Under the pieces are notes generated by a model. That model did no database searches, was not told where the DNA came from, and saw only the letters and a program-made list of their open reading frames with translations. A DNA stretch of 51,241 nt, from IMG/VR virus record IMGVR_UViG_3300037474_000080, positions 1-51,241 of that record; one strand, given 5' to 3'. Source of the DNA: a virus (taxonomy: Duplodnaviria; Caudoviricetes). The translations under genes were made by a program, and so were the position numbers. Below are positions 9,789-33,974 of this stretch, piece by piece (position 1 is the stretch's first letter; each line of letters starts with the position of its first letter).

Positions 9789-10898
9789 ATGCCAATAACC
9801 AAAAATTGCGAACATTGCCAAGCGCCTTATACTCGCGTTCCGGCTCTCGCGAAAGAGTCAAGATTCTGTAGCCGTAAGTGCTGCTTTGACTGGAAAGCGA
9901 TTTCTAGCAAGGCCGATAAGAGACTGCAAAAGATATGCGATAACTGCTCTGAGCCTTACTACGCTCTGCCAAATATATTCAAAAGGGCTAGATTTTGTAG
10001 TCGTGAATGCTACTACGCAAGCAAGCGTACTGAGAATAAACCGTTAAAAACTTGCGAGCAATGCAACAAAGAATACTATCCCAAAAGCAATGACCGCGCT
10101 CATAATGAAAAGCAAAAATACTGTTCTAATCAATGCAGCACTATTGCAAGCAGCACGGAAAAAGAGTGTCAAAAATGTGGCGCTTTATTCATTGTTACCA
10201 GGCTTAATTCGGGATTAAAATATTGCTCCGTTAAGTGCACGCCTCGCGGATCGTGCTCGTATTGCGGCAAATTGGTAACTGGAAAAGGAAACAAGCGTTA
10301 CTGTGATCGCTCCTGTGGTGCCTATGCCAAAAAGCGCATCGCTAAATTTTCCGAGTGCCACCACTGTAAAAGGTCATTCCCTCAGAAAAACGTTGACTCT
10401 GCCAAGCATAGAAAATATTGTTCTGCTCATTGTAGCAATCTTGCTACCGGAGAAACTAAGAACTGCCCGACTTGCGGTAAGGATTATTTTGCTCACAGGC
10501 TCATTAAGAATCGTTCCTACTGTTCTTCGAAATGCGTGCCCCGTAAGCCCTGTCCCCTGTGTGGAGTCGGTATCACTAAAAACCAAAGGCAGTTCTGTTC
10601 TTTAGAGTGCAGAAACATAGTCAAGGCGATTAAGCAAAATCACATCGCTCTGTGTTTTGCTAATACTATCCGTCTTAAAGGCTCCCTGGTTTGTGAGCGA
10701 TGCGGATACAACGTGATTGCCGGCTTGATTATTCACCATAAAGATAGAAACCGCCAAAACAACTCGCTCGGAAACCTCGAAACCCTATGTTCAAACTGCC
10801 ATTGTATAGAACATTATTCATACGCTCTTGAGCGAGATAGACTACTGGAAACGGCGAAAAAGATAGTGAAATACATAGATAAAATCAGCTTTCTTTAA
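9789..10898 (+). CDS. HNH endonuclease with an N-terminal array of treble-clef Zn fingers
   Basis: repeated CxxC...(Y/F)CSxxC units; C-terminal CERCG...IHHKDRNRQNNSLGNLETLCSNCHCIEH; GAGG RBS. Confidence 0.85.
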   Translation: MPITKNCEHCQAPYTRVPALAKESRFCSRKCCFDWKAISSKADKRLQKICDNCSEPYYALPNIFKRARFCSRECYYASKRTENKPLKTCEQCNKEYYPKSNDRAHNEKQKYCSNQCSTIASSTEKECQKCGALFIVTRLNSGLKYCSVKCTPRGSCSYCGKLVTGKGNKRYCDRSCGAYAKKRIAKFSECHHCKRSFPQKNVDSAKHRKYCSAHCSNLATGETKNCPTCGKDYFAHRLIKNRSYCSSKCVPRKPCPLCGVGITKNQRQFCSLECRNIVKAIKQNHIALCFANTIRLKGSLVCERCGYNVIAGLIIHHKDRNRQNNSLGNLETLCSNCHCIEHYSYALERDRLLETAKKIVKYIDKISFL

Positions 10899-17818: not shown

Positions 17819-18239
17819 TTACTTTTTACTTGCTGCCTTCATCTTCTTGTAATAATCAAAATCCTGCTCAAACTTCGCTTGCGCTCTTTCCTGCTGGATT
17901 ATGCGACAAAGTTCAGCGAAGGTGATTGACCAATTATCTTCGATGCGGTCTTGATTTTCGTGCAGTATGCCGCCAACAACTGAATGTAAATCGTTCAGCG
18001 AGTCAACGTTCCAGCCCTCAGGAAAGCCAGGGTGTAATTCTATTTCTTCGACTGCCTGTTCAATCCTTATATCATTAAACAGATCCATCAACGGGCATTT
18101 TGGGCACCCTTTTTTGCGATCTCTGTACTTGTCATTCTGTGGATTGTGGTCGCAAAGATTACAATAATATCTGGGGCCAAGTAAGAAACGCTTCTCAGCA
18201 AAGAAGTTTGCTTTCCAGGCTACAACCCTAAACGCGGCG
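17819..18239 (-). CDS. tail assembly chaperone frameshift extension (gpGT-like T part)
   Basis: frame is open about 50 codons upstream of the track start (18091) with no start codon and overlaps the end of the chaperone gene; contains CNLC...CPKC. Confidence 0.7.
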
Positions 18240-18605
18240 AAAAAACTCCAGCGGCTTTTGGGCGCGTTCCACCTCCATAACTACATACTGAATCACGCTT
18301 TCGTAGCCTGAATCCGTGAAATAATCTAAAGCGCGTTGCTCAAGGGTGCCGCCTTCTTTCGGGAAATCATCAATACCTTGCGGTTCTTCGGCTAACTGTT
18401 TACAGAATCGCGCCAGATTGTTTGCATCATCAAATAGAGTAGCGGCAACTTCCAAGCCTTTCCTTGTGCCTGCGGTTTCTCTGTTCATCGTGAACAGTAT
18501 GACCGTTTCCTCTGTCTCTACTTCGCCCGCTTCATTTGTGCTTCTGTTCACCAGCGTGACAGATACCGGAATCGGCTTGGTGAAGAAATCTTTCGTTATT
18601 CCCAT
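18228..18605 (-). CDS. tail assembly chaperone (gpG-like)
   Basis: 125 aa acidic, after the tail tube; ends GAG TTT TTT CGC CGC GTT TAG. Confidence 0.7.
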   Translation of the reverse strand: MGITKDFFTKPIPVSVTLVNRSTNEAGEVETEETVILFTMNRETAGTRKGLEVAATLFDDANNLARFCKQLAEEPQGIDDFPKEGGTLEQRALDYFTDSGYESVIQYVVMEVERAQKPLEFFRRV

Positions 18606-18614
18606 TTATTCCTC

Positions 18615-19001
18615 TTATGGCGTCGGATCAATTAACGCATAGATATTCAAATTAACCGGGTCGCTACCTGCATTGGTCACATACATTGTGGTCACGTTAG
18701 TAGTGATGGGATTCGCGAGCTGACTCTGATTATCCCAATCTACCCCGCTGTCGGAATCGAGCGTAAATGTATTGGCAGGCGAACCGCTTGAATTAGTTTT
18801 CAATGTCAGCGCGGCATCAGCCGAAATGAACAGCGACTTCAAAGCAGCGATTGTGAAGGCAATCAGGATTTGCTGATTTGTCGTTGTGCCTGGTACGGCA
18901 ATTTCAATCGCCAATTCTTCTTCTGCTTCTATGGTGCTGGTCAAGGCTGGGCGCACTGTCCCGCCACGATTCAACGATCTATTCCATTTATGTGTTGGCA
19001 T
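18615..19001 (-). CDS. tail-associated structural protein
   Basis: Thr/Asn-rich beta-sandwich-like ORF after the tail tube. Confidence 0.55.
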   Translation of the reverse strand: MPTHKWNRSLNRGGTVRPALTSTIEAEEELAIEIAVPGTTTNQQILIAFTIAALKSLFISADAALTLKTNSSGSPANTFTLDSDSGVDWDNQSQLANPITTNVTTMYVTNAGSDPVNLNIYALIDPTP

Positions 19002-21857: not shown

Positions 21858-21908
21858 ATACTTAAATGGGGAGTATTAAAACCTATGCGCTTTGGGTATA
21901 ATCTGGCT

Positions 21909-22202
21909 ATGATTTGCAATGCCATCAGAGAAAAGAATTCATCTTATACGACAACCCGACAAGCCGAAGTTGAATTTTGCTGCGAAGAGATGAAAGAAGC
22001 ATGGAACGATAGGTTCATCGGCTTCGGCGAATTTGACTCATACCCTATTAATCGCATTGTAGATGTCTGTGTTTATCGTTGTTTTGCCTATCCAGAAGGC
22101 GCGTTCTATAATGAAATGCCGCTTAAATATTGTCCGTTTTGCGCCGAAGAAATCAAAATCGTAATTACCGATGCGCCACTAGAATTGAAAGCTAACCGAT
22201 AA
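21909..22202 (+). CDS. moron-like Cys-rich protein, probably leaderless
   Basis: TATAAT at 21897-21902, ATG 6 nt later; FCCEEM...YCPFCA. Confidence 0.65.
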   Translation: MICNAIREKNSSYTTTRQAEVEFCCEEMKEAWNDRFIGFGEFDSYPINRIVDVCVYRCFAYPEGAFYNEMPLKYCPFCAEEIKIVITDAPLELKANR

Positions 22203-22895: not shown

Positions 22896-23458
22896 TTAAA
22901 AGCCCATTGCGGTCTTCAATGCTGCAGCCCATGCTGCATTGCCTGCGGTCGAATAATGCACGCCGTCTGTGGTGTTTGCCGCGCCGTTATCGGCTGCTTT
23001 GATCACGATTCTTTCATCAGGCCCCGCGCTGGCAAACAATGAGCGGGTTGATAGGACGTTCACAATCCAGGTGTCGTCCATAAGATCACATAGCGCATCA
23101 AATCCCCGCTTCCAGACCTTTGCAACAAGAATGTGCGTTGTAGGCCAAGCCGTGTGAATCTTATCCAGCAGGCTACCCAAAGACGCCTCGAAACTTGCCT
23201 GCGATGTTACGTTGATGTCATTGACGCCGATGTTGATCAGCGCGAACTTGTTTAAGAAGGCTGGAACTTCTTGTGTTGTTCCGCTTATCCAGGCGTTTGC
23301 TTGATTGTCGAGGTCTGCCGCACGCCATCCCGATAAAGCCAACTGAGCGGGGTAATTATTGAATGCCTGTCCTGCTGTCCGAAGACTGCTAAATAGCGTT
23401 GCCTGAAAACCATTAAGTTCGGTCTTACTGTCACCAAGAAAGGTGACAAGCCCAGTTA
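22896..23458 (-). CDS. SGNH/GDSL hydrolase domain, probably expressed by -1 frameshift from the fibre gene
   Basis: blocks FLGDS, LSG, INIGVND, DGVHY; block I begins 6 codons after the fibre stop with no suitable start codon. Confidence 0.85.
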
Positions 23459-23465
23459 TAAATTT
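23429..23465 (-). other. -1 programmed ribosomal frameshift signal
   Basis: A AAT TTA heptamer (23465-23459) directly before TAA; hairpin TGTCACC-tttctt-GGTGACA (23448-23429). Confidence 0.75.
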
Positions 23466-25552
23466 ACTACATGGAATCCTATGCTTACTTCGGCGGTTGC
23501 CGCTGCTCCTAAAGTAATCACAAAACTCCCTGCCCCCGGCACGGCGCTTTTTACCCAAGCTGTCGTGTCATTTGTTCGTAATGATGTATAGATAGTTGAA
23601 TTGACGGTACACTTATCACAAGTCACTGTAACGGTCGTTCCCGCCGCGGCGATGTTGACCGTTCCGTGCGCCTTGTTAATCGTCTGATTGCCGGTTGTTC
23701 CTGCCGGCGTGATTGTCTGGTCAACGTAGAGTTGGCGAAGTTTCAAATCACCAAATGAACCAACCGTACCATTATTGATTTCAATCATCCTGGCAGCGCT
23801 TCTTGCCATCGCCGTATCAAGCGAGGTCGAAGTCACTGCGCCAGAAGTCCAGCCAACAATCAACGATGACAGGTAGCGATGCTCTACATTTACGTCGCCC
23901 ATTGTAGCAACGCCGTTACAGATTGTCGTAATCTGGTTGGCATTGTTTCCGTTCCAACCCGTTGTCAGATTGCCCTTGAAGGTGATGGAAGGTGTCAGCG
24001 AAACAGAGCTTCCCTTTGCGGCTGCAACGAACTGGCGGTCATCAGTCATAATGACAGCGCCGTTGTTACCTGAGCCAATCAGAGCGCCGGGAACCAAGTT
24101 TATATCGCCACCATTGCCGTTACCGCTTGCGTTTCTTGCTGCTGCGCCTGCCGTGATGGTCACAGAGCCACCATTTGCTGCGCCTGCCACGCTTGACCCT
24201 GCCACTGCTGCCGATGCCGTCAAGGAGGCTGCAATACCCGCCTGCGAGGTTGTAATTGCTGCTGGAGCGGTTGCTGTGAATGCTGCGGCTACGCCTGCAC
24301 CGGTTACGAGTGCTGTGTTGATTGCAACGGAAGCAAGATTGTCGAGTGCTGTCGTTGCTCCGCTGCTTGTAATGGTTGCCCATTCTGGAGCTGTAGCGCC
24401 TGCGTTCATTCGCAGTTGCTGAAGGGCGGTGCCTTTGGCAAGACGAGTCAGAACATTCGATGCTCTATAGTAAATATCGCCGTTCGCGTCAGAACCAAGC
24501 GACATTGTGACAGCGCCCAAAGATGCACCAGAACCCAAACCGCCACTTGTGACAGTGCCAATTGCTGTCAGGGATGAAGTGACAACCGTTGAATTCAGGG
24601 TTGTGCCTGTGAGCGTTCCTGCTGCTGCTGTGACTGTTATTGCTGCCGTGCCATCAAATGACACGCCGTTGATTGCTCTGGCGGTCTGTAAAGCCGTAGC
24701 CGTGCCAGCATTGCCTGTGACGCTTGTCTGGTCGCCCGTGTTGGTTCCGGAAAGCGAAAGATCAGTTTTCAGTTGCGCGATGCTGCGATTTGTCCAGGCA
24801 CCGGCTTTGCGCTGCAATATATCGTCATTGGTTGGCGTGAGTCCTGCGATTGCTGAAAGGTCAGTGCTTAGACCTTGAGCATCAGTAATCCCATAGCCTG
24901 ACAGTGTGGTAGGCTTGCTGCCAATCTGCGCGAAAGTGTAATCATTGCTCTGCGCTGTGACCGTTCCGGAGCGCCCGAACACTGATGTAACGCTATCGGT
25001 AGGGGTTAATAACTCCTGCCAATTGGCAAGAACCGTCGCGTCTGCAGTCTTGAGGATGAAAGATTTGTTCAGGTCTGTGCGTACGGCAATATCGCCCACT
25101 TCTGCTGTAAGAGCGAGCATTGCAACCTGAGACGCGACAACAAAAGTATCGGTAATAGCGAGGGCAGGTAATTGATTCGGATTTATCTTTCCGGATGAAT
25201 CTAAGCCAGCATAACCGCTGTTCTGGTCTTTGTTGGCTGGGTCCTCTGGCGTAAACCCTAAAGCCGCTTGCTTGGCGTTCCAGGTGGCAGCACTGGCAAT
25301 GTACGAATCACCGATGGGCGTACCGTTCCAAATACCGGCACTGACCGTACCAAGAGTTGTCAGGTTTGTGCTGCCTGCCCATGTAGAAAGTGCGGTATTC
25401 TCTACGCTGCCCAGTCCTACCTGTGATTTTGTCACAGAGTGCGGATTGCTCGTATTGGCAACGTGCGTAGACAGGTCGGAATCATCAGCAGGCGTAAAGC
25501 CTAACTCTGCAATGATTGCGGCGTATGATAAAGGTGCGGTTGCGTTTGGCAT
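23456..25552 (-). CDS. head/neck fibre-like protein
   Basis: 698 aa Thr/Ala/Gly-rich; phage fibre modules SNPHSVTKSQVGLGSV, NKDQNSGYAGLDSSGKI, VTSVFGRSGTV, KPTTLSGYGITDA, TARAINGVSFDGT. Confidence 0.8.
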   Translation of the reverse strand: MPNATAPLSYAAIIAELGFTPADDSDLSTHVANTSNPHSVTKSQVGLGSVENTALSTWAGSTNLTTLGTVSAGIWNGTPIGDSYIASAATWNAKQAALGFTPEDPANKDQNSGYAGLDSSGKINPNQLPALAITDTFVVASQVAMLALTAEVGDIAVRTDLNKSFILKTADATVLANWQELLTPTDSVTSVFGRSGTVTAQSNDYTFAQIGSKPTTLSGYGITDAQGLSTDLSAIAGLTPTNDDILQRKAGAWTNRSIAQLKTDLSLSGTNTGDQTSVTGNAGTATALQTARAINGVSFDGTAAITVTAAAGTLTGTTLNSTVVTSSLTAIGTVTSGGLGSGASLGAVTMSLGSDANGDIYYRASNVLTRLAKGTALQQLRMNAGATAPEWATITSSGATTALDNLASVAINTALVTGAGVAAAFTATAPAAITTSQAGIAASLTASAAVAGSSVAGAANGGSVTITAGAAARNASGNGNGGDINLVPGALIGSGNNGAVIMTDDRQFVAAAKGSSVSLTPSITFKGNLTTGWNGNNANQITTICNGVATMGDVNVEHRYLSSLIVGWTSGAVTSTSLDTAMARSAARMIEINNGTVGSFGDLKLRQLYVDQTITPAGTTGNQTINKAHGTVNIAAAGTTVTVTCDKCTVNSTIYTSLRTNDTTAWVKSAVPGAGSFVITLGAAATAEVSIGFHVVNL

Positions 25553-26627: not shown

Positions 26628-27728
26628 TTATCGAACGGTAAGCACTGCGGTTGATGACAGGCGTTTCTTGCGAGGCCAGCCACGCGCCACAGCCCATTGT
26701 GTCAGGTTCGGCGGGTTGAAGTCCGGGTTTGCGGTCGCATAGCCTACAGGCCCGTATTCTGGGCCACTGAAACCACCGAGCATACTGCCATCGGTCAGGC
26801 TTGAAACAACTGTCTCTGTGACAATCGCATTGCCAAAATCAATGGCCATGCCCGTGTTGTCGTCGCTCGAATCAGACAAGACGACCTTGCCGGATGGAAG
26901 ATAAGGCGCTGATGCTTTTGTCCCATCGTTGGCTTGCGTCCAGGCTTTCGCGTCGTACAATTCGATTTCCATGCCGATGATGCGCGCTGCAAGTGCAGTC
27001 ATTTCAGGCAGTGCGTTTGACGGGAAGCTGGCGGCCGGGAAGGTTATCTGCGAATACAGCTGCGCCTTTGCCTGAAACTCTGTTGTTGCTATCATCAGCC
27101 TGAAATCTGCACTGCCCATCGTCACACGGTTATACATCTCACCGTATTTCTCAGCGCCCAGCTGTTTCAACGACAGGATATTGTCAACAGGCGTTCCGGT
27201 GCTGGCCGATGTCCAGAGCGGCGAAACTGTAACCTTGAGGTCGGAAGGCATACCCCACGTTGCACCACTGATCTGGATTCCCAAGCGGTTGTAGCTATAC
27301 GAATCAATCGCACAGGCAACAATCAGGGCTTCCATTCTCTGACGAACACCAAGAAGCAACTTATCCTGTTCACGATTTACATAGTCGCTGAGAATGCCTT
27401 CATCGGAAGGAATCCCGCCGCCTGCGTTGATGCGCGCCAGAAGATTCAACATCTCCTGAGTGATAAGCGAACCGTGCTTGAGGTTCGGAATCTTGTTGGT
27501 TTCCAGCGTGAACTTGCCATCTGAACGGACAACGGCTTTCTGATCGTCTGCAATGATGTCAGCCATCAACACATTGCCATCAAACCGCGCCATAATCTCG
27601 CCATCAGTGGCATTGACTAAAGGCGTGCGGTTCAAGAATTTGAGTTGCTGCGGTATTTCTCTAATGTCTCGCAGCGTGGACATCACAGTATTGATTCTTC
27701 GTGTGCCCAGTATATCTAAACCACGCAT
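26628..27728 (-). CDS. major capsid protein (lambda gpE-like family)
   Basis: 366 aa; LLGVRQRMEAL, WGMPSDLK...W...TP..NIL; AGGAGG RBS; follows protease and decoration genes. Confidence 0.85.
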   Translation of the reverse strand: MRGLDILGTRRINTVMSTLRDIREIPQQLKFLNRTPLVNATDGEIMARFDGNVLMADIIADDQKAVVRSDGKFTLETNKIPNLKHGSLITQEMLNLLARINAGGGIPSDEGILSDYVNREQDKLLLGVRQRMEALIVACAIDSYSYNRLGIQISGATWGMPSDLKVTVSPLWTSASTGTPVDNILSLKQLGAEKYGEMYNRVTMGSADFRLMIATTEFQAKAQLYSQITFPAASFPSNALPEMTALAARIIGMEIELYDAKAWTQANDGTKASAPYLPSGKVVLSDSSDDNTGMAIDFGNAIVTETVVSSLTDGSMLGGFSGPEYGPVGYATANPDFNPPNLTQWAVARGWPRKKRLSSTAVLTVR

Positions 27729-27790
27729 AATATTTTCCTCCTATGGATATTTTTACGCTGCGAGCTAATCGCACCGTGTAATTGTTGCGA

Positions 27791-28576
27791 TTAGTCTTTA
27801 AGCAGTTGGATTGCCGGGAAAGCGGTCAGGAAATTGGCGATTGTGGGGCCATTGAGAACGCCGACAAGCAATCTATCCTGCCATACCAGACCACCTTCAA
27901 TAACTGCCGGGTTGGAACTGTTGAGCTCACTGTAAAGAACCGTCTCATTCAGGATATACGCTTCGCCGCGTGTCATCGTCTGACGCCCATCGGTTGCAGT
28001 GGTGTCGATTGGGCCATATTTGCCGTTGCCGGTTCCTGCGGTTGTCGTGCCGTGCGTAACGCTTGGTGTCGTGCCGCCCGCGAAAGTGTTGGTCGATGTG
28101 AACTGCGGAATGTTGCCCAGATCACGGTTTACGGTGATGGTATAGATATAGGGTGAACCCGCAGAGCCAGAGCCAGAGCGCGCAACGGAAACACCGTCAG
28201 TGCCAAGACGAAGCAGAGCGTTAAGCGTGTCCTGAAACGTTTGCGCAGAAGCGTTGAAGGCGATTGCCGCCGCGACTTCTGCGGAGTAGTCACCATCTGC
28301 CGGCAATGTCAAGATTGCGCTTCCCGATGTCGGGCCACCAGTGAATTCAACGGTCTGCACTTCTGCTGTACCAATCAAGCCCAGTACCTGACCGTAGCGC
28401 AGATATTTATCGCCGTTTTTAACAACGGTGCCATCATCAAGCGTCGTGTCAGATGAAACAGCGGTGACCAGCGACCAGTCAACAGTGATGCCGCCTGCTT
28501 TCCAAAGCGGCTTACCATCAGCAGACACCATAACCTGACTGCCGGTTGTTTCCAAAATCTGTCTTCCAAATGCCAT
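27791..28576 (-). CDS. head decoration protein with an inserted domain
   Basis: KYLRYGQVL...GKYGPIDTTATDGRQT...YILNET split by an AEVQTV...IAFNASA domain. Confidence 0.75.
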   Translation of the reverse strand: MAFGRQILETTGSQVMVSADGKPLWKAGGITVDWSLVTAVSSDTTLDDGTVVKNGDKYLRYGQVLGLIGTAEVQTVEFTGGPTSGSAILTLPADGDYSAEVAAAIAFNASAQTFQDTLNALLRLGTDGVSVARSGSGSAGSPYIYTITVNRDLGNIPQFTSTNTFAGGTTPSVTHGTTTAGTGNGKYGPIDTTATDGRQTMTRGEAYILNETVLYSELNSSNPAVIEGGLVWQDRLLVGVLNGPTIANFLTAFPAIQLLKD

Positions 28577-28635
28577 CGTATTTCCTCCTAAAATAGAATC
28601 GTGATTGCTCTTTTCAGAGCGTTATCGCCTCCAGA

Positions 28636-30105
28636 TTAGGAAGCTTTCTTACTGTTCATCTTTTCGGCAAAGTCTTTGGTTGATGCGCGTACCTTCTCAA
28701 GTTCTGCGGCTTCCGGATCCGCATTGTTATCCAGAGCATAAGCACCGTTTGGTATCTGCGATTTCACAAGCTCCATGCTCAAGTTGTGCTTCGGACGCTT
28801 CTCAAGGCTGGCTTCCAGAATCTTGACGCGCGAACCATCGGCAAGCGGATTCGCTTCGTCATCAATCGCGGCTTGAACGTACTGCGCTTTGAAGCTTTCC
28901 GCTTCAGCCGGGACGATTGAGCGCGAAGTGATTGCCGTCTTCACGAAAGCATCGGCGGCCTGCGTGATCTTTTCCTGTTTGAGCTTGGCGTTTTCAGCCT
29001 TCAGCTTTTTAACCTCTTCGGATTCAGCCGGGGGCTGTTGCGCTATAGGTGCCTGCGTCGGCTGCTGAACTGGCGCTACGGGTTGCCCTGTCGCCGTTGC
29101 TACTTCCTGTCCCGAAAGGGCATTTTTTAGATGGTCCCATAAATTCATGGTCGTATCTCCTTTGTTGCCCGATTCGGGCGGATTGTTAGTATTTTCAGCC
29201 GTGGCATTCATTGCGTTTTTCTTGCGCTTTGCTTTGCCAGTAGCCATTTCCTTCAGAATTGATTCAAAACTTCCTGTGCGGTCAGCGAGTCCAGCCGTAA
29301 CAGCGGCTTTGCCAATCATCATGCCGCCCTGACCAAAATCAGCCAGTACTTTTTCAACAGTGACGCCACGAAAGCGCGCCACATCTTCAACAAAGACTTG
29401 CGCCATATCGTCAACAAGCTGCTGCAGAACGGCATCGCCTGATTCGGTTCCCATCTTCGGGCGCTTCTTTGGGGATTGCTCAGAAACATAGGTGCGCTTT
29501 TGAATGCCGCGCTGCTCGTAAGCTTTGGTGTAATCGGTTGCTTCCATCACTGTGCCGATTGAACCAACCATTGCAGAGGAATCAATCACAACCTCATCAG
29601 CAGCAGCAGCAATGTAGTAGGCAGCGGATGCGCCATAACCGCCAATGTAGGCAGTCACAGGCTTGTCACTCTGACGTTCAGCAATCATCGTGGCAAACTC
29701 ACCAATGCCGAACGCTTCACCGCCCGGGGAGTCTATGAAGAATAAAATTGAACTGACACCTGGAGCGTTTAAGGCTTGCCCGAAATTACGAGCGAGAGAT
29801 TCAGTTGATACGCCGCCACTCCATTCAGAGAAGAAATCGGCATGGCGTACTATCGGACCTATAACTTCGATAACCGCAACGCCATCACGAACACGCACGC
29901 GCTTATTGTCACCAAGCGGCTCGCCCTGTTTGATTGCCAGTGATGCGGGACTGTTTTCCCGCGCTTCTCTTTTGTCTTTAGCTTCGGCAATACCTTTGGC
30001 GATTGCTTCAAGGTCGCGCTCGCGAGAGACAACAGAAACAATCAGTTCGAGGTATTCCGGGACAATCATCCACGGTTGAGAATTGACATAGCCAAGTGCG
30101 TTCAT
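28636..30105 (-). CDS. S49 (SppA/ClpP-like) head maturation protease with C-terminal scaffold
   Basis: IDSPGG, GASAAYYIA, VGSIG, AVTAGLAD motifs; internal GGAG RBS before MNLWD suggests a nested scaffold start. Confidence 0.9.
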   Translation of the reverse strand: MNALGYVNSQPWMIVPEYLELIVSVVSRERDLEAIAKGIAEAKDKREARENSPASLAIKQGEPLGDNKRVRVRDGVAVIEVIGPIVRHADFFSEWSGGVSTESLARNFGQALNAPGVSSILFFIDSPGGEAFGIGEFATMIAERQSDKPVTAYIGGYGASAAYYIAAAADEVVIDSSAMVGSIGTVMEATDYTKAYEQRGIQKRTYVSEQSPKKRPKMGTESGDAVLQQLVDDMAQVFVEDVARFRGVTVEKVLADFGQGGMMIGKAAVTAGLADRTGSFESILKEMATGKAKRKKNAMNATAENTNNPPESGNKGDTTMNLWDHLKNALSGQEVATATGQPVAPVQQPTQAPIAQQPPAESEEVKKLKAENAKLKQEKITQAADAFVKTAITSRSIVPAEAESFKAQYVQAAIDDEANPLADGSRVKILEASLEKRPKHNLSMELVKSQIPNGAYALDNNADPEAAELEKVRASTKDFAEKMNSKKAS

Positions 30106-30384
30106 TTAGACGAACCTCATCTGCAAAACTTTGATTTGCTTCGTTTTGTGCTGGCGAGTAATGAATTTAGGCATTGCTTTAACGAGAACCTCAGGTGCAC
30201 GGAAAATTCGTACAGTTGACCGCTTCACCTTTACGCATAAAGCCACGAAACGGCGACGACTATCTTCTGCGGCAATTGCCTGCTCCCGCCTTCTTATTTC
30301 TTCCATCTGCGCGGCGATAGGGTTAAAGCGGGGTTCTATCCTGTAGTCATCGCATCTTGTAGTGGTAAAAGTTCCAGAGTTCAT
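30106..30384 (-). CDS. basic hypothetical protein
   Basis: ATGA-coupled start MNSGTF; abuts the protease start. Confidence 0.5.
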   Translation of the reverse strand: MNSGTFTTTRCDDYRIEPRFNPIAAQMEEIRRREQAIAAEDSRRRFVALCVKVKRSTVRIFRAPEVLVKAMPKFITRQHKTKQIKVLQMRFV

Positions 30385-30554
30385 TGATTGCTTAGAAGAT
30401 ATGGGCTTACAAAAGAAGTGATGAAATAAATAAAAATCAGTAAAAGGATTATGCAGACAACTGACCAACCAAAGGTAAAGCCCGAATTATCTACGGTGCC
30501 AAAATCCTTTGATGGGTCAGGCTTTGGCGGTCTGCTTGGCGGTCTATCGCTCAT
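30381..30554 (-). CDS. 57-aa single-TM protein
   Basis: ATGA overlaps at both ends; MSDRPPSRPPKPDP...WSVVCIILLLIFIYFITSFV; absent from the ORF track. Confidence 0.65.
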   Translation of the reverse strand: MSDRPPSRPPKPDPSKDFGTVDNSGFTFGWSVVCIILLLIFIYFITSFVSPYLLSNQ

Positions 30555-31936
30555 TGATTAGCTTGTTGCTGATTATTTTGCTGCTGCGGTGGCTGACTTG
30601 CCTTTGCTCGCATAGCTATTACCTCGTCTTCCGAGGGCGGGGCGATTCCAATTTGCCCCAATAATCCTTGAATCTGTGAATATGTCAACAAAGGTCTAGT
30701 ATTTCCGTTTTCGTCAATGACGGTAGCCGTACACAACCCGACAACAGCATCAGAATCTTTATCCCACGACTTGCGGTCATAATCACCGAGCATTGCCTTT
30801 GGCGTAAGCTCTGCGGCTATCTCTGCGCCATAGTTATATTCAACCTGCGGCTTATAGATTTGCGAACGAACGATTTCAGCAACCCACGTTTTTCCAGCCC
30901 AGACGAGCAGTTCAACAATGTCCATCTGGCTTGCCGTGCTGCCTTTGGTCTGGTGCGCGGCGTCTGAGGTGGCAAGCTCCTGCAATAATATGCCTTTGGT
31001 GATTTCTTTATTGACGATTTGAAAGAAGCGTTCCCAAAACTCACCTTCGCCTCTAACTTCAAGCGCTTTTATTTCAGAGCCGCTTTCAAGAACCATCGCG
31101 GTTGAGTTTTTGAACTCAGCAAGTGCCTGCAATGCCTCATCTACTGCGGTAAGAGTGGATTGATTGCCCTGCGAGTCCGTGGTGATTTTGTCCTTCGCTT
31201 TATCCGAAAGAATGACCGCCAGTCCAGGCACCGCACATCTGAGCGCATAGGTCAAAAACTCAGGCCAGCCAAGCTGTTTCAGATTCCAGGCTTTTACCGC
31301 TGGACGTAGAAGGGAATTACCTCGCGGGTCTTCATCCTTCATTCGATAGGTGGCGATGACAAACTTCTCAGGCGGTATGACTTTGGAGTTTTCGCTAATT
31401 ACAGGCGTGTAGCCGCTGCGAGCAGGCACTAGTCCCACAAGATTCATAAATTCATCAACAACAAAGGCTGTTGCGGCTTTCGGCTTCACTTTGATTTGTG
31501 AAAGCACAAGCTTGTAGGCATCAAGCCCGGTCGTCGGAATCGCGTAAACCTTTTCAGCAACCTTATTGCCGTGCGTCATTGATTCTTTGACAATCATTTC
31601 CAGCGTTTCTTTCAACGGTCGCTGGAGATTGCACATGGTTCGCTCGATGTGCTGATTGATTTCTACGGCAAGTTCGTAACGATCATCTTTCTCACCAACA
31701 GCAGGCGCACACTGAACGCCATCGGCAAGAATGAAATAGACCAATAGTAGAAGCGCTGCGGCAACCTCTGAATCACAACTCATCTGCTCGTAAACAGTAG
31801 GTCCAGGCGTGCCGGTAACATCTTCATTGACCTGCGGCAACCTGCGAGGGCCACGCAATGAGCTATAACCGGATGACACCGCCACGTAAGAGCGTTGCAA
31901 TTCAGTCTTTGTGATTTCCTTCGGTGCAGTTGCCAT
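30551..31936 (-). CDS. portal protein (Mu gp29/DUF935-like)
   Basis: YEQM..DSEV, EDPRGNSLLRP..KAW, NKEITKGILLQELAT; follows terL. Confidence 0.85.
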   Translation of the reverse strand: MATAPKEITKTELQRSYVAVSSGYSSLRGPRRLPQVNEDVTGTPGPTVYEQMSCDSEVAAALLLLVYFILADGVQCAPAVGEKDDRYELAVEINQHIERTMCNLQRPLKETLEMIVKESMTHGNKVAEKVYAIPTTGLDAYKLVLSQIKVKPKAATAFVVDEFMNLVGLVPARSGYTPVISENSKVIPPEKFVIATYRMKDEDPRGNSLLRPAVKAWNLKQLGWPEFLTYALRCAVPGLAVILSDKAKDKITTDSQGNQSTLTAVDEALQALAEFKNSTAMVLESGSEIKALEVRGEGEFWERFFQIVNKEITKGILLQELATSDAAHQTKGSTASQMDIVELLVWAGKTWVAEIVRSQIYKPQVEYNYGAEIAAELTPKAMLGDYDRKSWDKDSDAVVGLCTATVIDENGNTRPLLTYSQIQGLLGQIGIAPPSEDEVIAMRAKASQPPQQQNNQQQANQ

Positions 31937-31937
31937 T

Positions 31938-32105
31938 TTATCTACTTGCTCGCGGGGCTCCGCATTTGGGGCAGTTATCCTTTATAAAGCCATAGCCGCA
32001 ATAAGAGCAGGGCGCTTTTTTCTCTATCCGAGTTTCTGGTTTTGCAGTTCTACTTGGCACTTCAGTGACACGATGCGGCGGCGGTTCCGGTGGTACGTAT
32101 CCCAT
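31938..32105 (-). CDS. 55-aa zinc-ribbon protein between terL and portal
   Basis: TAATG-coupled; PCSYCG...NCPKCGAP; absent from the ORF track. Confidence 0.65.
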   Translation of the reverse strand: MGYVPPEPPPHRVTEVPSRTAKPETRIEKKAPCSYCGYGFIKDNCPKCGAPRASR

Positions 32106-33550
32106 TAATACATTTTCCTAATGTGGTCGATTGACTGGCGACGACCAGCGGTAGCGGGTGCGCGTGCGGGTGCTTCTCTTTTAACCATTACGCCATAGCG
32201 AGTCATATCGTAAGCATCATCCCCGCCTTCACCATTGACGTCAGCATTAACTTTCTTTACATCTTCGGGGTCGTTCGGGTCGCATACCATTCGCGTCATT
32301 GTCGATATGGTTCTGCGGCAAGTATTGAAGATTTTCAGCGTTGGCTTGATTTCAACTTGAGCATTGCCGAACCTTTTAAGAAGTTCCTGCGCACCGGTTA
32401 TGCGGTCAATCGTGGCTTTCTGCAGGTCAAAGCCTATGAACTTCCCGGTTTCAGGGTCCATGGCTTCGGCGTATTGATCAGCAATAGTTTTGCCGTCTTT
32501 CGAACCGCGTTGTTGAAATACATCATGGCCAGCAACTATCTGATTGACGCGATGCCAGTTGATTTTTAACCGTTCAGCGATGCGCCTGATTGCTTTGCAG
32601 TGCAGGGGTACAAGCCATTTATTCTGTACATGTTCACCAATCAGATAAATGCAGCCGTCATTGTCTTCAGTGAATAGCCCAAATGCAGTAGGATGTGAAA
32701 AGCCGTAATCCAGCGCGCCCCATACAGGCCAGTCAGCAGGAATATTAAAAGGGTCACAGGTATGTAAATCTTCGTCCCATTCTTCAAAGTAAAGCCCTTC
32801 AGCGCCAACCCATTTGCCGTAGCGTAATCGAGCTTTGCGGATTCCTGTCAGCGAATCGAGCGCCTTCATTGTGCGCGCTCCCTGGATTGTCAGATTGCCT
32901 GATTCATCAAAGAGCGACGGATTGTCTTCATGCTTTGAGTAGAAGACTTTCAGCGCATCGCGTTTGAGAATCCAGTGATCTTCTGGCCCCGGATTACAGT
33001 CGCCGAAAAGCATAGGCGTTTTCGTTACCGCACCGCGCCCAGTGGTTCGAGTCGTGAGCGTTTCCCAATCTTCAAGCGTCAACTCTTCGGCCTGATTCAC
33101 ATAGATGAAATCACGTTCACCGGAAAGGACCTTGCCGGGCCTATCCATTCCGCCGATGTAAAGACGTGCGCCGCCTGGATAATCAAACCATTCGGGCTTT
33201 TCACCGCCATACGCGAGGGCACCGCTTTTGCTTTTCTCTACGACGCGGCGATAGGTTACGAGAACTGTCGGATTGATGTCAGCGGCAACTTTGCGGACAA
33301 GTCCAGCTTGTGCATTTGGCGTTTCTTTTAACAGCGCGTCGAGCTTCCAGAGAGTTGCCCAAGTTTTCCCGGTTTCTGATGGCCCTGCAAGCATGAACTC
33401 TGTGCCGTAATAGTTTTGAACCTCAAGACCTGCACCGCGAAAAGTGGGCGCTTCGAATATTCCGTAATCCTGCGGTCGTCGTTCAGCTTGCCTTCGCCTT
33501 TTCTCTTGTAAGGCGCTTGCTCGCAGCCGCAAAAACGGATCGCGGGTCAT
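32105..33550 (-). CDS. terL: terminase large subunit
   Basis: Walker A GPSETGKT, Walker B-like FIYVNQAEE, DCNP, nuclease ALDYGFSHP and DDAYDMTRY. Confidence 0.92.
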   Translation of the reverse strand: MTRDPFLRLRASALQEKRRRQAERRPQDYGIFEAPTFRGAGLEVQNYYGTEFMLAGPSETGKTWATLWKLDALLKETPNAQAGLVRKVAADINPTVLVTYRRVVEKSKSGALAYGGEKPEWFDYPGGARLYIGGMDRPGKVLSGERDFIYVNQAEELTLEDWETLTTRTTGRGAVTKTPMLFGDCNPGPEDHWILKRDALKVFYSKHEDNPSLFDESGNLTIQGARTMKALDSLTGIRKARLRYGKWVGAEGLYFEEWDEDLHTCDPFNIPADWPVWGALDYGFSHPTAFGLFTEDNDGCIYLIGEHVQNKWLVPLHCKAIRRIAERLKINWHRVNQIVAGHDVFQQRGSKDGKTIADQYAEAMDPETGKFIGFDLQKATIDRITGAQELLKRFGNAQVEIKPTLKIFNTCRRTISTMTRMVCDPNDPEDVKKVNADVNGEGGDDAYDMTRYGVMVKREAPARAPATAGRRQSIDHIRKMY

Positions 33551-33974
33551 CGCCTGCAATGATTCGCTCAATCTCATAATCGTTAAGCAGAGAAAGATCA
33601 GCGTTATTAAAATCGAAATTCGTTTGATTGGTTTCAAATCTCTCTCTGTATTTTCCAGGCTTTGCGCCTTTGAGAAGGAAGATTAAAAGGGTATCGCTGT
33701 ACTCTTGAACGTAACCAATTCTTTTGCCGCCTTGATAAACCGGTTTCTTTACACCTTGAAAAGCGCGCCTTCTGGCTTCGCCTTCAAGAGCGTCAGCGGC
33801 TTGATCAAGAGCATCCTCGAATAATGATTTGAATTCATCGTCGTCCTTCCGGTGCCGATAAATCGTCTTTCTGTCAACGCTTGCTGCCTTGCAAGATTTT
33901 GTTATATTTCCGGTCTTTGCAAGCTCGTCAAGGAATTTCTTTTTTTTAGCGGGGGCAATTGGGGCATTTGCCAT
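33483..33974 (-). CDS. terS: terminase small subunit
   Basis: N-terminal HTH GNITKSCKAASVDRKTIY; EARRRAFQG...YSDTLLIFLLKG. Confidence 0.88.
   Translation of the reverse strand: MANAPIAPAKKKKFLDELAKTGNITKSCKAASVDRKTIYRHRKDDDEFKSLFEDALDQAADALEGEARRRAFQGVKKPVYQGGKRIGYVQEYSDTLLIFLLKGAKPGKYRERFETNQTNFDFNNADLSLLNDYEIERIIAGDDPRSVFAAASKRLTREKAKAS

Follow-up and report, generated by a model that had tools for sequence, protein, structure and literature searches.

Does a tailed phage arm part of its fibre copies with an enzyme through ribosomal recoding? A locus in the window, by which we mean the whole 51,241-base stretch of DNA that was analyzed, raises this question. The window is a complete virus record, the genome of a tailed phage that also encodes a tyrosine integrase. 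At the locus, the gene for a fibre-like protein ends in a slippery heptamer, and an SGNH hydrolase domain lies open in the –1 frame. Both genes are on the minus strand, a detail absent from the initial annotation. The relevant features are listed here.

23456..25552, minus strand: fibre/tailspike-like protein, 698 aa, with a G/A/T/S-rich shaft and a C-terminal beta-sandwich tip (∼residues 607–698), assigned from PHROG and structure matches
23477..23480, minus strand: weak SD-like AGGA (4-nt match only), 11 nt upstream of the heptamer, a possible 5' stimulator
23459..23465, minus strand: slip site A AAT TTA, a heptamer of the X XXY YYZ form within the final fibre codons, read from the sequence
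23456..23458, minus strand: fibre stop TAA directly 3' of the heptamer, read from the sequence
23421..23452 (core 23448–23429), minus strand: downstream stem-loop whose 3' arm includes the G-D-S codons, a candidate stimulator, from folds compared with shuffles
22896..23459, minus strand: SGNH/GDSL hydrolase domain, 187 aa, –1 frame, from a PF13472 match and predicted fold
23556..23558, minus strand: TTG ahead of the site and in frame with SGNH, dismissed as a start (3-nt anti-SD match; extension not conserved)
26628..33637, minus strand: head module upstream of the fibre (major capsid, decoration protein, S49 protease, portal, terminase large subunit), from family matches

The fibre ORF (25552–23456) terminates with GTA AAT TTA TAA. 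The heptamer at 23465–23459 is followed immediately by the TAA, in agreement with the initial annotation of a perfect heptamer directly before the stop. In-frame heptamers are rare, occupying 8 of 5796 codon positions in 12 large genes. On both strands together there are 11 heptamer-plus-stop sites, and long open frames on both sides are seen only at the end of the fibre gene. No homopolymer longer than 3 is present at the site. The sequence AAAUUUA plus a stop is the gag–pol signal of Rous sarcoma virus. The locus had been described as a retrovirus-style –1 frameshift; the –1 reading is supported, but the label adds little, since phages use X XXY YYZ sites too (PMC5009743). In E. coli, A AAA AAG is described as far more shift-prone than U-rich sites (PMC5009743), so the level of frameshifting at A AAT TTA may be low. 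A DNA pattern specific for the heptamer retrieved nine viral stretches, eight of them chance matches with upstream frames of 11–32 codons.

The consensus for –1 sites, as given in PMC3542737, pairs X XXY YYZ with a stimulatory structure 5–9 nt downstream. At this locus the spacer is 10 nt to the core hairpin TGTCACC/GGTGACA (23448–23429) and 6 nt to the extended hairpin (23452–23421) seen in an 81-nt fold. Both the core and its extension towards the site had been anticipated. Stability is modest, with z scores of –1.7 for 59 nt (9 of 200 shuffles as good) and –2.1 for 81 nt (5 of 200), fading to –1.4 and –0.8 in two longer downstream windows. All 30 control windows taken from the SGNH gene fold less stably.

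The –1 frame matches Pfam PF13472 (Lipase_GDSL_2) at E = 5e-9, above the cut-off. Blocks I, II, III and V are complete, comprising GDS (Ser11), G44, G78-x-N80-D81 and D165-x-x-H168. The structure model (pLDDT 95.7) has the three-layer alpha/beta, flavodoxin-like fold, and its closest solved relatives in fold are carbohydrate esterases, led by the CE3 enzyme 2vpt (TM 0.75, E = 2e-8, 17% identity); identity between the window's domain and solved members is 17–19%. The appended domain is a predicted acetyl-esterase. Because strand 1 spans residues 3–9, the domain would begin at the slip site without a linker. A shift would join 187 residues to the 698 of the fibre, and the resulting 885 aa equal the ∼885 aa originally estimated.

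How else could the domain be translated? Between the slip site and the catalytic Ser11 there is no ATG, GTG or TTG, and the first in-frame start past the site is a TTG at codon 39, beyond Ser11. With all four blocks in place and the first start lying after the catalytic serine, the description of a complete SGNH hydrolase lacking a credible start holds. One explanation is that a stand-alone small SGNH protein arises by reinitiation, or from a non-canonical start close to the end of the fibre gene (ATA, or the TTG at 23558), and that the heptamer is there by chance. Weak SD matches do occur on many real genes of this genome, 4 of the 30 family loci described below have an own coupled ATG, and a possible start lies near the GDS in about half of the recoded-looking loci. 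A promoter-like site at 23929–23901 matches at 9 of 12 positions, but six such sites were found versus 4.5 expected. Arguing the other way are the missing start codons, the rarity of in-frame heptamers and the habits of ordinary genes after such fibres, nearly all of which are ATG-started, 0–8 codons away (best 80 of 159 loci). The TTG at 23558 has only a 3-nt anti-SD match, and the extension it would open is not conserved in the relative described next. Overall, we consider separate initiation unlikely.

Relatives bear on whether the break is genuine. L001 is 100% identical to the window over 9,723 bases; it may come from the same sample and so is not independent. X1 may likewise be from the same sample as the window. 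X2 derives from an independent soil run of another study, and its contig covers 23286–23596 (311 nt) with 91% identity, 28 differences and no gaps across the junction. Among the 23 of 28 differences listed, none alters the heptamer or the stop. Upstream of the junction, all three changed codons leave the fibre protein unaltered but would replace residues in the –1 frame (R>W and P>S, both non-conservative, and N>D), which shows that the extension from TTG 23558 is not conserved. Downstream, 16 of 18 changed codons are synonymous in the SGNH frame. In this one relative, then, the –1 frame is open and conserved, and selection appears to switch frame at the site. The hairpin differs by one loop base and by one A:U to G:U change. 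With 3 changes in the ∼100 nt upstream and 91% identity, X2 alone is too little to tell conservation of the heptamer from chance. A candidate pair with a compatible overlap, P0018/P0125, would carry the non-canonical 7-mer A AGA AAY and an internal Met.

Such a break could also stem from misassembly or from a fusion gene that was broken recently (a pseudogene or a phase-variable indel). Six of the 30 family junctions are plain fusions, another locus (L036) has a stop inside the domain, and L001 and X1 may be the window's own sample. Yet the break recurs in the independent run, purifying selection acts on the SGNH frame and homopolymers at the site reach at most 3. Moreover, the best 120 of 449 fibre homologues all stop within 2 residues of the end of the tip, and this tip is missing from the other 92 long proteins of the SGNH search (the 93rd is the window's own fibre). 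Indel error and pseudogene were rejected on the gapless X2 break and the synonymous frame switch (3/3 and 16/18), and we regard a broken fusion of any kind as very improbable. The –1 frameshift reading thus outlived both tests that could be run, one for indel error and one for initiation at TTG 23558. The break is real and a programmed –1 frameshift is probable, judging from sequence comparison; it would be one case of a wider pattern in which three kinds of leaky junction link an enzyme module to fibre-like proteins of phages.

We also analyzed the carrier. Its PHROG matches are to tail and virion structural proteins and are partial (E = 1e-6 to 1e-17). A structure model of the C-terminal 214 aa (pLDDT 87) best matches the C-terminal domains of tailspikes: 9k4a (Z 8.6, rmsd 2.2, 72 aligned), 7w1c (Z 7.4) and 7eea (Z 6.5). 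A Foldseek search gave nothing at E ≤ 0.001, and in an Atlas search PF24146 (K1-lyase_C) was the third hit, with a score of 0.90. In its fibre-type shaft and modelled C-terminal beta-sandwich tip, the carrier resembles a fibre or tailspike. In the best 120 of 449 fibre homologues, the last residues are N (93), NQ (14), NK (6), NL (2) or other (5), the N-L ending being restricted to the window's two closest relatives.

The initial annotation had suggested looking in related fibres for the same signal with swapped downstream domains; no such case was found. Of 159 viral loci that share the tip domain, the best 80 were compared and yielded 65 distinct fibre ends. The only slippery one is that of the window (0 of the 64 others), and the TGA-CT and TTT-TGA motifs discussed below occur at none of the 65. 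No SGNH of the window's family lies near the fibre in the other 79 of these 80 loci. Because none of the 64 other ends is slippery, recoding appears to track the enzyme, not the fibre.

With respect to genome setting, the initial placement among head–neck genes is partly upheld: a major capsid gene (PF03864) sits 2.2 kb upstream of the fibre gene, whereas the neck assignment was inferred, the small genes flanking the fibre having no family match. A host search gave no match to the window in genome contigs or GenBank phages, and none of the public RNA runs listed matches it. Among public runs, a soil metagenome matches the window best and may be where it comes from. This setting bears on whether the long product joins the virion. 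The frameshift could be real and its product a minor enzyme, whether soluble, at the membrane or acting during assembly, for example a modifier of the host surface. Several readthrough and +1 carriers of the family have, by eye, signal-peptide-like N-termini, and carrier function rests on partial PHROG matches and a tip fold at Z 8.6. The window's own carrier has no such N-terminus, has tail and virion matches and lies in a structural operon, and relatives in nine loci adjoin capsid, protease, scaffold or head–tail adaptor genes. A non-virion role is therefore quite unlikely in our judgement.

Taken together, the heptamer, stop and hairpin are likely to yield minority –1 slippage, giving a 698-aa fibre and an 885-aa SGNH form. 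Most ribosomes would end at UAA and release the 698-aa fibre. In a minority, tRNA-Asn and tRNA-Leu would shift from AAU/UUA to AAA/UUU, adding 187 residues. The hairpin would favour slippage while release at UAA is slowed, and the weak AGGA 11 nt upstream perhaps helps. Short and long subunits would then co-assemble into head- or neck-associated fibres, and the few esterase domains per virion would remove O-acetyl groups from host surface polysaccharide during adsorption. Selection may favour a low enzyme copy number, which lineages would reach by whichever leaky junction arises. If so, a share of the fibres in such phages bears an enzyme, recoding fixes the ratio of enzyme to binder on the appendage, and the principle of passive decoration, known for Ig-like and carbohydrate-binding modules, reaches catalytic domains.

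To place the domain in its family, a profile built from 31 SGNH sequences was used, and it gave 532 representatives at E ≤ 1e-30. In the best 150 of these, the number of residues before GDS is at least 100 in 77, 20–99 in 19 and fewer than 20 in 38, with GDS absent in 16. We fetched 46 loci; after removal of 10 duplicates, 5 truncated short of the junction and the fusion L036, whose domain contains a TAA, 30 distinct junctions remained, including the window's twin L012. Six are plain in-frame fusions; these, along with the 77 proteins with at least 100 residues before GDS, indicate that SGNH works as a C-terminal appendage. Four have their own coupled ATG. The other 20 look recoded (19 of 29 besides the window). 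In 14 of the 30, an in-frame UGA lies 4–10 codons before GDS, followed by CUN in 12 and by A plus a strong hairpin in 2 (z –2.1 and –3.8). At four, a shifty UUU-UGA-U stop precedes a domain in the +1 frame, and two have a –1 heptamer with a hairpin: the window and L044 (U UUU UUA). L044 also shows a GTGA start–stop overlap, and coupling could explain it. A possible ATG, GTG or TTG start lies near GDS, after the stop or just before it, in 10 of the 19 recoded-looking loci other than the window (seven of the 14 readthrough type, two of the four +1 type, and L044); no start follows the stop in seven readthrough loci, L014, L041 and the window. Of the 12 CUN codons, 8 are CUG, itself a rare start.

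SGNH identity between loci is mostly 40–60%, and the carriers are largely unrelated across junction classes. The reverse of the suggested swapping holds, at the level of sequence comparison: one SGNH family is joined to differing carriers by differing recoding signals. In a scan of 96 of 136 called ORFs, structural neighbours (capsid, protease, scaffold or head–tail adaptor) were seen at L013, L016, L017, L019, L025, L033, L040, L055 and L060, and terminase or portal neighbours at L015 and L022. The window's SGNH family has no tblastn match among 50,697 GenBank phage records.

Are the UGA and +1 motifs specific to these junctions? In the fetched loci, none of 60 ordinary TGA ends (136 ends in total) has CT after it or TTT before it. 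In-frame adjacency alone means little, because 31 of the 136 ordinary ends precede a long in-frame ORF. A second control covered six genomes (the window plus 13 stretches, which stop short of the last 3–4 kb of G001 and G003 and hence of the L055 junction). Of 261 ends, 124 are TGA, and all 3 TGA-CT cases and the single TTT-TGA case are SGNH junctions. U precedes UGA in 11 of 14 readthrough junctions versus 2.5 expected. Leu occupies GDS-4 in just 21% of 87 fused proteins, so the motif lies in the nucleotides. Fisher and Poisson-binomial p-values for the TGA ends in the fetched loci and for this U preference serve as description only, as they were computed after the fact and on related loci.

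Other readings of the UGA were considered. A UGA-reassigned code (tables 4/25) was rejected in favour of table 11: Trp is TGG, and TGA ends ordinary genes. Each carrier-plus-SGNH pair contains 8–20 TGG codons but a single in-frame TGA, located where the two join; TGA also terminates the SGNH frame in 8 of 14 readthrough loci, and TGA is the commonest gene end in the six genomes. As a check for selenocysteine insertion, which uses a SECIS hairpin immediately 3' of UGA, 10 UGA-CUN sites were folded along with shuffles and showed no stable hairpin (z –1.4 to +1.3), whereas the two UGA-A sites gave –2.1 and –3.8. A –35 box at TTGACT was dismissed, since matches to a –10 box do not exceed 3 of 6 and transcription would begin past GDS. 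A phage-encoded UGA suppressor was likewise dismissed: the window has no tRNA gene, and the one found in 5 related records has the anticodon CUA, which reads UAG.

Support in the SGNH tree is weak: of its 27 branches, 5 are starred. All +1 loci group together in a clade (95/92). The UGA-CUN label requires 6 changes on the tree and is still compatible with one origin. Independent origin of the two –1 sites (window and L044) is not supported, a single origin being compatible with the data (p-AU 0.32). We judge it an evenly balanced matter whether environmental dsDNA phages share this family as a mobile enzyme cassette gated by recoding, with esterase number tuned by interchangeable signals (–1, +1, UGA readthrough). 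In the same proposal, NNU-UGA-CUN would be a programmed readthrough signal on bacterial ribosomes, missed by gene callers, so that annotations routinely show the enzyme as a truncated orphan.

Several known systems invite comparison. Ig-like domains are joined to phage capsid or tail proteins by –1, +1 or in-frame junctions, as in the T3 coat, Lactobacillus A2 and Listeria A118/A500/PSA (PMC5009743), which bears out the earlier remark that phage frameshifts append Ig domains to such proteins. As described there, a C-terminal domain is placed on a fraction of a virion protein, and one domain type is joined in all three ways, similar to the SGNH case. In contrast to those extensions, the window's cargo is a catalytic SGNH domain and its carrier is fibre/tailspike-like, not a major capsid or tail tube protein. 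Further, the commonest SGNH junction, in-frame UGA, is a mode absent from the PMC5009743 account of Ig-like domains. The locus works like an Ig-like optional extension without belonging to that group, since the appended fold is SGNH. In the lactococcal 936-group MTP-TpeX, a +1 shifty stop, CCC.UAG, yields a mix of short and extended subunits, for which a role directed at carbohydrate is predicted (PMC4759559). TpeX, as presented in that source, is a binding module carried by the major tail protein, whereas the window has a –1 heptamer and the SGNH family uses UUU-UGA-U at its putative +1 sites. The lambda tail assembly chaperone G/G-T also uses a –1 frameshift near a gene end in a dsDNA phage structural operon; its products are described as chaperones that leave assembly (PMC5009743), unlike the 698-aa fibre-like protein with its enzyme extension.

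SGNH domains on tail fibres and tailspikes have esterase or deacetylase activity in G7C gp63.1 and Klebsiella prophage RBPs (PMC13123978). These resemble the window's long form in carrying an SGNH esterase domain on a phage fibre, the activity being predicted in the case of the window. Those domains are in-frame, and the main text of PMC13123978 contains no mention of frameshift or readthrough. For UGA readthrough, PMC7026636 describes Q-beta A1 and the UGA-C and UGA-CUA contexts, with which the 12 of 14 family junctions reading UGA then CU agree. In that account UGA-CUA comes from viral and eukaryotic genes and the bacterial example from an RNA phage, whereas the SGNH family is found in dsDNA phages and adds U before the stop (11 of 14). 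A literature search by title and start of abstract, mostly outside subscription papers and supplements, found no description of recoding-appended SGNH domains. The principle of optional Ig-like or carbohydrate-binding extensions is known; the SGNH family would differ in its enzyme cargo and in the added readthrough mode.

If the proposal is true, the five junction types within one domain family amount to a natural experiment on the preference of phages for sub-stoichiometric extension. The candidate signals NNU-UGA-CUN, UGA-A plus hairpin, UUU-UGA-U and A AAU UUA-UAA are testable on bacterial ribosomes. A class of mis-annotation would be explained as well, in that the closest homologues are database fragments minus the catalytic serine. 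These are filed as fragments of 115–148 aa, and the three closest (74–93% identity) were called without GDS, with no residue called before it. The database entries of the window's SGNH and its three closest homologues, 146–148 aa long, begin at the codon-39 TTG or one residue later.

Among the proteins homologous to the window fibre are candidates for further pairings of its C-terminal beta-sandwich (the tip domain) with SGNH domains. In P0018 and P0125, found on contigs of equal size (5627), a fibre sharing the tip domain may be paired with a 52%-identical SGNH protein. The ends of these proteins, judged from the protein sequences, would be compatible with a -1 overlap at a non-canonical 7-mer, A AGA AAY. 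P0052 is another fibre that shares the tip domain; precomputed assignments place a PF13472 domain inside its own reading frame, and it gave no match to the profile of the window's SGNH family.

Beside the heptamer of the window fibre, 4 nt downstream of AGGA, lies a start-stop in the third frame:
window 23465-23472, minus strand, ATG-TAG, just upstream of the heptamer

Comparison of the N-termini of the carriers by eye showed signal-peptide-like starts on many fibre-like members of the readthrough and +1 classes (L015, L017, L021, L024, L025, L029, L033, L035, L037 and L043), and none on the window carrier. Such N-termini are odd for virion proteins.

The phage with the readthrough locus L017 (genome G001) carries a tRNA with anticodon CUA:
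L061:1498-1585 (G001:C1:31709-31793), minus strand, labelled tRNA-Pyl by ARAGORN
This tRNA is possibly an amber suppressor, and it would decode UAG, not the UGA of the junction. The same genome has another candidate for recoding, probably a frameshift of the tail-assembly-chaperone type:
L062:19385-19748, minus strand, 121-aa gene with G GGA AAC close to its stop; -1 frame open for 138 codons

In one family locus, an in-frame SGNH fusion is interrupted, which could reflect an error, a broken gene or further readthrough:
L036:3327-3893, fusion with a TAA inside SGNH, ∼20 codons past GDS

Within the window, a tail-chaperone pair might sit at two small ORFs that follow a 313-aa gene:
window 18228-19001, minus strand, ORFs of 128 and 125 aa
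No heptamer was found near the stops of these ORFs, and the second (125 aa) has its own ATG. The minus-strand structural region is also interrupted by two ORFs on the opposite strand:
window 21885-22202, plus strand, 105-aa ORF containing Cys
window 9789-10898, plus strand, HNH-type protein matching phrog_1271 in 5 stretches
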